This document shows, one piece after another, positions 819 through 1,367 of a DNA stretch of 2,353 bases. Made by a program: the position numbers and the translations under genes. The notes beneath the pieces are model-generated. The model did not search any database and had not been told where the DNA came from. It saw only the letters and a program-made list of their open reading frames with translations. Numbering within the stretch: position 1 is the first letter of the stretch; each line of letters opens with the position of its first letter. This stretch comes from Escherichia coli (GTDB taxonomy: Bacteria; Pseudomonadota; Gammaproteobacteria; Enterobacterales; Enterobacteriaceae). The stretch lies in NCBI RefSeq assembly GCF_003334335.1, contig NZ_QOWQ01000089.1; one strand, written 5' to 3'.

Positions 819-1367
819 ATGAATGTTAATAAAAAGAAGCTTGCTGAAATCTTTAATGTCGATATACGCACTATTGATCGCTGGCAAACTCAGGGGCTCC
901 CTCAGATATCTGGTGGAGGAAAAGGTGTTGAGGTCATCTTTGATTCTGCGAAGGCGATCGAATGGTATGCTCAGCGCGAAGCTGATATTGAAAATGAAAA
1001 ACTCCGTAAAGAGGTCGAGGATTTGAGGGCTGCCAGCGAATCAGACCTTCAGCCCGGCACCATTGATTACGAACGTTACCGACTGACGAAGGCACAGGCA
1101 GATGCACAGGAACTGAAAAATGCCCGCGACAGTGGGCAGGTCATTGATACAGGGTTTTGCCTTTTTGCTCTGGGAAGACTGGCACAGGAGATCTCTGCCA
1201 TTCTTGACTCCATTCCATTGTCCATGCAGAGACAGTTTCCGGCACTGACGCCCGCTATGCTTGATTTCCTGAAAACCGATATAGCAAAGGCGGCAAACCG
1301 ATGCGCATCAACGGCAGAGAAGTTACCGGAGATGCTGGATGAATACCTCAGAGAAGCAGCTAAATAA
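819..1367 (+). CDS. nu1: Terminase small subunit (lambda gpNu1 family)
   Basis: 182-aa ORF beginning [39 protein letters not shown]..., versus lambda Nu1 MEVNKKQLADIFGASIRTIQNWQEQGMPVLRGGGKGNEV... (from memory, 181 aa). Conserved features are the N-terminal winged HTH, the GGGKG motif and the central block [30 protein letters not shown]. An AAGGA Shine-Dalgarno motif at 806-810 lies 8 nt upstream of the ATG. Confidence 0.92.

Follow-up and report, generated by a model that had tools for sequence, protein, structure and literature searches.

The locus described here raises two connected questions: where does the gene for the large terminase subunit of a lambda-like phage begin, and does its overlap with the preceding small-subunit gene couple the translation of the two proteins? 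The DNA analysed, referred to below as the window, is a 2353 nt stretch of Escherichia coli sequence. According to the original prediction, the large-subunit gene starts at an ATG at position 1339, inside the 3' end of the small-subunit gene, and the arrangement suggests translational coupling. The reading favored here, with a probability of roughly 85%, is that the junction is the counterpart of the lambda nu1/A junction, that the large subunit starts at ATG 1339 within the codons for a conserved L-D-E-Y motif of the small subunit, and that ordinary initiation is the likeliest way in which this start is used.

The window and its gene order

Escherichia phage PhiR5_1 (PV340545) matches the entire window at 99.9% identity, and in it a 'terminase subunit Nu1' and a 'terminase DNA packaging protein A' are annotated at exactly the window's coordinates. 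A literature search found no relevant paper describing PhiR5_1. The 601 nt around the junction match 26 records at an identity of at least 99% in a collection of 5426 complete E. coli genomes. In one of these records, E. coli STEC17-183, the same two genes, with the same coordinates and the same 29 nt overlap, were called independently by PGAP. The window is a contiguous piece of the late region of a lambdoid phage, in circular or prophage form.

The first feature of the window is the 3' end of the Rz spanin gene (1-263), comprising its C-terminal 86 codons, which are 73% identical to lambda Rz. The gene for the Rz1 lipoprotein (16-201; 61 residues, 67% identical to lambda Rz1) lies wholly inside Rz in another reading frame. 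Rz/Rz1 is therefore a second overlap in the window, a complete gene within a gene. A gene-free stretch of about 300 nt (264-572) separates Rz from the cos site. It contains short open reading frames only and has no annotated gene in PhiR5_1, whereas in lambda the interval between Rz and cos spans about 2 kb and holds bor and other genes. Positions 1-719 are about 90% identical to Stx1a-converting phages.

A lambda-type cos site occupies approximately positions 573-700, which align with lambda positions -57 to +70. The cohesive-end sequence GGGCGGCGACCT at 631-642 is identical to the 12 nt cohesive end of lambda, and a cosQ-like sequence, GGGTCCTTTCCGG, is found at 601-613 as part of the same alignment. 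The aligned region also takes in the I2 segment and an R3-like element after the cohesive end; the R2 and R1 elements have no clear identification at this cos site. Because of the alignment and the identical cohesive end, the ends of the virion DNA would fall at 630/631, within the window. The small-subunit gene lies directly downstream of this lambda-type cos site (cosN plus cosB).

A scan of the whole window against Rfam matched no RNA family at E <= 1. Two promoter-like sites were predicted in the window, compared to 2.2 expected from shuffled sequences, and none of them is at the junction. Five terminator-like sites were predicted, near the shuffled counts (2.6 expected, standard deviation 1.6), and again none is at the junction.

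The two terminase subunits

The gene for the Nu1-like small subunit (819-1367, plus strand) encodes 182 residues and ends with the stop codon TAA at 1365-1367 of the same strand. Its assignment is based on the open reading frame, on Pfam and PHROG profiles, on homology to lambda and on the PhiR5_1 and PGAP annotations. The protein matches Pfam Phage_Nu1 (PF07471) with an E-value of 1.3e-81 over model positions 1-163 of 164, as well as PHROG 57, terminase small subunit (2.6e-67), and is 62% identical to lambda Nu1. Sequence comparison matches the first 98 residues to 6hn7_B, a solved chain of lambda TerS (E 2.6e-42), and the first 68 to 1j9i_A (E 3.1e-25). The N-terminal part is accordingly predicted to be a winged helix-turn-helix DNA-binding domain, as in the solved lambda domain. 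The C-terminal region of lambda TerS is reported to bind TerL (PMC9611059). In the Nu1-like protein, where the C-terminal region was read from sequence only, this region carries the conserved L-D-E-Y tail; binding to TerL is established in lambda.

The gpA-like large-subunit gene (1339-2353, plus strand) runs off the window, which contains its 5' part of 338 codons; the full-length protein in PhiR5_1 has 642 residues. This part aligns with lambda gpA from Met1 through residue 338 without gaps, at 69% identity. It matches PHROG 15 (6.8e-179), and the Pfam GpA_ATPase domain (PF05876) covers residues 47-293 with an E-value of 3.8e-55. The ATPase domain is preceded by an N-terminal extension of about 46 residues, which is collinear with that of lambda gpA. 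The nuclease domain (GpA_nuclease, PF20454) is located at residues 323-601 of the PhiR5_1 protein (E 7.6e-71), outside the window. A search of NCBIfam profiles found no model matching either the Nu1-like or the gpA-like protein. A sequence-based search of solved structures returned none for any gpA-type large subunit, and of Nu1 only the N-terminal domain is represented. The subunit interface encoded by the overlap thus has no structure to consult.

The start of the large-subunit gene

The features of the junction are all on the plus strand. The reading frame of the large subunit is closed upstream by a TAG at 1282-1284 and is open from 1285; the first ATG, GTG or TTG after this stop is the ATG at 1339-1341. 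With the Nu1-like gene read in frame 0 and the ATG in frame 1, the large-subunit frame is one base ahead. The two genes share 29 nt (1339-1367), which are read as the end of the small subunit (...D-E-Y-L-R-E-A-A-K-stop) and, out of frame, as the beginning of the large one (M-N-T-S-E-K-Q-L-N). The start codon arises from the small-subunit codons GAT-GAA (Asp-Glu), and the codons of the conserved C-terminal L-D-E-Y motif (1335-1346) carry it in their +1 frame. A Shine-Dalgarno (SD)-like GGAG at 1328-1331, provided by the codons CCG-GAG (Pro-Glu), is separated from the ATG by 7 nt (1332-1338), a favorable distance. The positions of the GGAG, the ATG and the stop codon, and the 29 nt out-of-frame overlap, had all been given in the original prediction and were exact when rechecked. 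The overlap is a property of the sequence and not a statistic.

The same organization is found in lambda (NC_001416), where nu1 occupies 191-736 and A occupies 711-2636, giving an overlap of 26 nt with a GTG start. The genes are homologous and have the same relative frame, and the start lies at the homologous nucleotide in the [D/S]-E of an L-x-E-Y motif. In both phages the start is in the +1 frame inside the last ten or so small-subunit codons, and these codons are homologous. In the DNA alignment, GGATGAATA of the window stands opposite AGTGAATA of lambda. The window's GG-ATG-AATA is opposite AG-TG-AATA of lambda, which places both starts at the same nucleotide position, ATG 1339 being homologous to GTG 711. 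The upstream CCGG[G/A]G, made of Pro-Gly/Glu codons, is also common to the two. The window overlap is 29 nt compared to 26 nt in lambda only because its small subunit is one C-terminal codon longer.

The original prediction had relied on a remembered match in length between the N-termini of the two large subunits. The alignment with lambda gpA, which it had proposed as a check, is collinear from Met1 and runs without a gap through the 338 residues encoded in the window. Together with the homology to the lambda A start, the conserved start column and N-terminal length, the invariant residues described below and the two independent annotations, this strongly supports, at the level of sequence comparison, ATG 1339 as the true start of the large subunit.

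The junction in related phages

Related loci were collected from 80 close and 80 more distant IMG/VR contigs and from annotated GenBank phages. The position of the start codon was analyzed in 75 distinct junctions, from phages of Escherichia and Pseudomonas and from marine phages, and overlap lengths and motifs were compared in 57 distinct ones that have the conserved start. A start codon is present exactly 30 codons before a V-E-W-A-D motif in 66 of the 75 junctions (56 ATG and 10 GTG), whereas any other column upstream of the motif has a start codon in 0 to 24 of them. This comparative start column is the signal that exceeds chance. None of the 75 junctions has an in-frame stop after the conserved column. 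In 24 of them, including lambda and N15, a stop codon is found immediately before the column, so that no alternative upstream start exists there.

The overlap is 29 nt long in 41 of the 57 junctions, 26 nt in 12, 38 nt in 3 and 35 nt in 1, with 49 ATG and 8 GTG start codons. In nearly all of these junctions the start codon falls within the codons of L-[D/N/S]-[E/D]-[Y/F], most often LLDEY (20) or LLSEY (8). Read one base on, GAT-GAx gives ATG, and AGT-GAA of lambda gives GTG. The family consensus at -13 to -9 is CCGG[A/G], the Pro-Gly or Pro-Glu codons of the small subunit, and it is the sole SD-like element. A Gly-to-Glu difference (GGG to GAG) yields the canonical GGAG core of the window.

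N15, a phi21-type phage and two of the three Pseudomonas phages examined, BR144a and LESphi2, have annotated overlaps of 29 nt. Longer ones are annotated in Alteromonas phage P24 (35 nt) and in a Roseobacter phage (41 nt). For the third Pseudomonas phage, Hali, the annotated value is 23 nt, or 29 nt if counted from an ATG six bases upstream. In every annotated phage examined the frame of the large subunit leads that of the small subunit by one base, and in the wider set of junctions this relationship is constant in nearly all members of the family. The best explanation of these comparisons is that the Nu1/gpA terminase family inherited the overlap from its ancestor, the relative frame being constant and the commonest length 29 nt.

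Several atypical junctions were also seen. One contig (L127, IMGVR_UViG_2824346434_000001) has a canonical 4 nt ATGA overlap, another (L110) has an overlap of 17 nt, and in Vibrio phage VP58.5 (L090) the annotated overlap is 95 nt. A further contig, L107, has no overlap (-22 nt) according to the heuristic used for picking starts, with a GTG start 23 codons before the motif; this start is probably mis-assigned. Since atypical junctions exist, a long overlap is usual in the family without being required. L127, L110 and VP58.5 could provide natural comparisons for relating overlap length to subunit ratio.

Translation of the large subunit

The predicted pairing of the GGAG with the 3' end of 16S rRNA is -6.6 kcal/mol, similar to that of the Nu1 start (-6.2 kcal/mol). 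Compared to lambda, the window has ATG for GTG and GGAG for GGGG, a nominally stronger signal (the lambda A site scores -5.7 kcal/mol). The GGAG on its own is unremarkable, as 15% of window positions score -6 kcal/mol or better. The strength of the SD is not conserved: in PhiR12_1, a phage of the sister lineage, the large-subunit SD scores -3.3 kcal/mol, and the family mean is -4.5 kcal/mol, with none of the 57 junctions reaching -7.

The reading favored here is that a 30S subunit would bind the large subunit's own modest SD and ATG and initiate de novo. Ribosomes on the last nine small-subunit codons would keep this site unfolded, yet they would also block it transiently. Production of the large subunit would then be loosely tied to that of the small subunit and would be lower, which fits the protomer composition TerL1:TerS2 (PMC7229814; PMC4856287). 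Strict termination-reinitiation might also take place, but the sequence can be explained without it. A weak SD is expected if initiation leans partly on upstream ribosomes, and translational coupling of the two subunits, as originally suggested, is for this reason still plausible. A search of the available literature found no experimental data on Nu1-A coupling.

The sharply peaked distribution of overlap lengths could be due to selection acting on the overlap as such or just on the ends of both proteins, and the data are compatible with either. A bolder version of the former, which we regard as tentative and rather doubtful, holds that the overlap is under selection throughout the family, where it would set a sub-stoichiometric TerL:TerS ratio and lock the interaction surfaces against recombination. 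Both effects would come from placing the large-subunit start codon and its SD inside the small-subunit codons for P-[G/E]-x-L-D-E-Y. The ratio would be fixed by ribosome occlusion plus limited backward reinitiation, and the C-terminus of TerS and the N-terminus of TerL would constitute one unit that is not split in mosaic genomes. If true, this would apply to phages of hosts as different as Escherichia, Pseudomonas, Alteromonas and Roseobacter.

In the main rival reading coupling is obligatory: the ribosome would stop at TAA 1365-1367, move about 26 nt back and restart at ATG 1339, so that the large subunit would be produced only where and when the small one is. The two products do make one enzyme with a fixed stoichiometry (PMC7229814; PMC4856287), and short overlaps are enriched in gene pairs for heteromeric complexes (PMC10666635). 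The family SD is weak to moderate, with the mean given above, and the overlap length is tightly conserved, both of which would suit a dependence on upstream ribosomes. However, documented cases of termination-reinitiation have overlaps of 4 nt or 1 nt or very short gaps (PMC10666635), whereas here the stop is 26 nt downstream of the start. In native E. coli gene pairs the efficiency of reinitiation collapses within about 14-38 nt, and long overlaps typically arise without coupling (PMC10666635). Furthermore, the start at 1339 has a usable SD of its own, and the family does not need a fixed distance between stop and start, because L127 has the 4 nt ATGA and other members have 17, 35, 38 or 41 nt. 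Obligatory backward reinitiation is therefore unlikely.

Another form of coupling, in which a hairpin over the SD, the ATG and the stop is melted by ribosomes translating Nu1 and a new 30S subunit then binds, is quite improbable. The minimum free energy fold of 1290-1400 does hold a long stem around the overlap, with arms at approximately 1310-1326 and 1366-1381, so that the SD, the start codon and the stop of Nu1 all lie within the hairpin. The equivalent initiation region of lambda is predicted to be mostly paired, with an unpaired probability of 0.16. In the window, however, the mean unpaired probability over -13 to +3 of the predicted ensemble is 0.52, so about half of the initiation region is open. 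The hairpin is not more stable than those of shuffled sequences (z = -1.0; 30 of 200 shuffles are at least as stable). No conserved masking structure was found in ten homologous junctions, all of which fold differently, including that of the close relative PhiR12_1. Neither a stable nor a conserved structure that sequesters the SD and the start is thus seen in these comparisons.

It is very improbable that the large subunit starts further downstream, without a functional overlap. The next candidates after 1339, GTG 1387, ATG 1519 and ATG 1528, are all in frame; the Met codon at 1528-1530 had been pointed out originally as the alternative that could refute the start at 1339. SD-like pairing is weak to moderate at ATG 1519 (-5.9 kcal/mol) and at ATG 1528 (-5.4 kcal/mol). 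However, residues P27, T29, W33, E43, G49, W51, T53 and Q57, encoded upstream of both, are invariant in 11 diverse relatives, and the invariant stretch is larger in a closer set (V31-D35 and N37-P41, among others), which indicates that this region is translated. M61 and M64 are internal, conserved positions in the motif A-I-M-N-x-M-G, and lambda has no start codon in the large-subunit frame between 711 and 891. At GTG 1387 the SD pairing is -2.4 kcal/mol with no spacer, and a start codon occupies that column in 3 of the 75 junctions, compared to 66 for the column of 1339. Conservation of the residues encoded before them, the statistics of the start column and poor SD geometry rule out these downstream starts.

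Lambda terminase, when purified, is made up of two distinct subunits of about 20 and 73 kDa. The idea that the +1 frame relationship serves a programmed frameshift to a Nu1-gpA fusion protein, the sole support for which is the constancy of the frame in nearly all family members, can practically be dismissed: a conserved start codon heads the large-subunit frame, the stops immediately upstream in 24 of 75 junctions would restrict a fusion to shifts made within the short overlap, inspection by eye showed no slippery motif and none prone to +1 shifts, and the TerL1:TerS2 protomer is consistent with separate subunits.

Divergence of the junction and mosaicism

The similarity of the window to its relatives changes along the two genes. 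In its 5' half (819-1115) the small-subunit gene most resembles the phi21-type phage and lambda, with an identity to the former of mostly 70-85% and of 58% in one 60 nt interval. Positions 1116-1415, which encode the C-terminus of the small subunit and the N-terminus of the large one, are diverged from all four relatives compared. Within this block, 1356-1415 is the lowest stretch of both genes, with 38-45% nucleotide identity to the four. From 1836 on, identity to PhiR12_1 is about 100%.

Such a mosaic pattern of similarity would fit recombination that swaps the DNA-binding half of the small subunit separately from the subunit-interface block. The N-terminal 48 or so residues of gpA are reportedly the Nu1-binding domain, a result attributed to Frackman et al. 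1985 and Wu et al. 1988. The divergence at the junction fits a co-evolving subunit interface, since the C-terminal region of TerS binds TerL in lambda (PMC9611059).

Relation to known overlaps and annotation

The nu1/A overlap is said to have been reported already with the lambda genome sequence by Sanger in 1982. The arrangement in the window is the known one of lambda, with minor differences in the start codon, the SD and the length of the small subunit, in a phage that had already been sequenced and annotated accordingly. The overlap is real but ordinary, because it has long been known in lambda and is common to most relatives. The genes 1 and 2 of N15 and of phi21-type phages and the corresponding pair of the Pseudomonas D3/LESphi2-type phages have a 29 nt overlap, an ATG start and the same frame relationship. 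N15, BR144a and LESphi2 have 30 codons from Met1 to V-E-W-A-D, as in the window. The overlapped sequence itself, however, is highly diverged from that of the N15, phi21-type and Pseudomonas pairs.

Gene pairs of the trpB/trpA type, with ATGA or TAATG junctions, resemble the terminase pair in being co-directional, in sharing one mRNA and a junction sequence, and in encoding subunits of a complex. They differ in that the overlap here is 29 nt and not 4 or 1 nt, and in that the downstream gene has its own SD. The coat and lysis genes of RNA phage fr have an out-of-frame overlap of similar size, 34 nt, which is the basis of the scanning model, with reinitiation after backward movement of the ribosome being proposed (as cited in PMC10666635). 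The fr genes are an unrelated pair, however, and the lysis gene of fr lacks independent initiation.

A minor and modest addition of the present comparison is that in phages of hosts from Escherichia and Pseudomonas to Alteromonas and Roseobacter the start is embedded in L-D-E-Y and the frame does not vary. This provides an annotation rule for lambda-type terminases: the large-subunit start lies inside L-D-E-Y in the constant frame, with a modal overlap of 29 nt. In the present case the large terminase gene is to be called from ATG 1339 and not from a Met codon further on, and gene callers must permit the 29 nt overlap. Beyond correct annotation the significance is small. The junction also offers a small, clean system for finding out if a long overlap favors coupling or fixes the ratio of the subunits.

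The next junctions of the same operon, in the downstream head genes of PhiR5_1, overlap as well. As annotated, A and W share 17 nt (6251-6267), W and B share 4 nt (6454-6457), and B and C share 11 nt (8036-8046). The SD pairing at these three junctions is -9.0 to -9.5 kcal/mol, stronger than at the Nu1/A junction.
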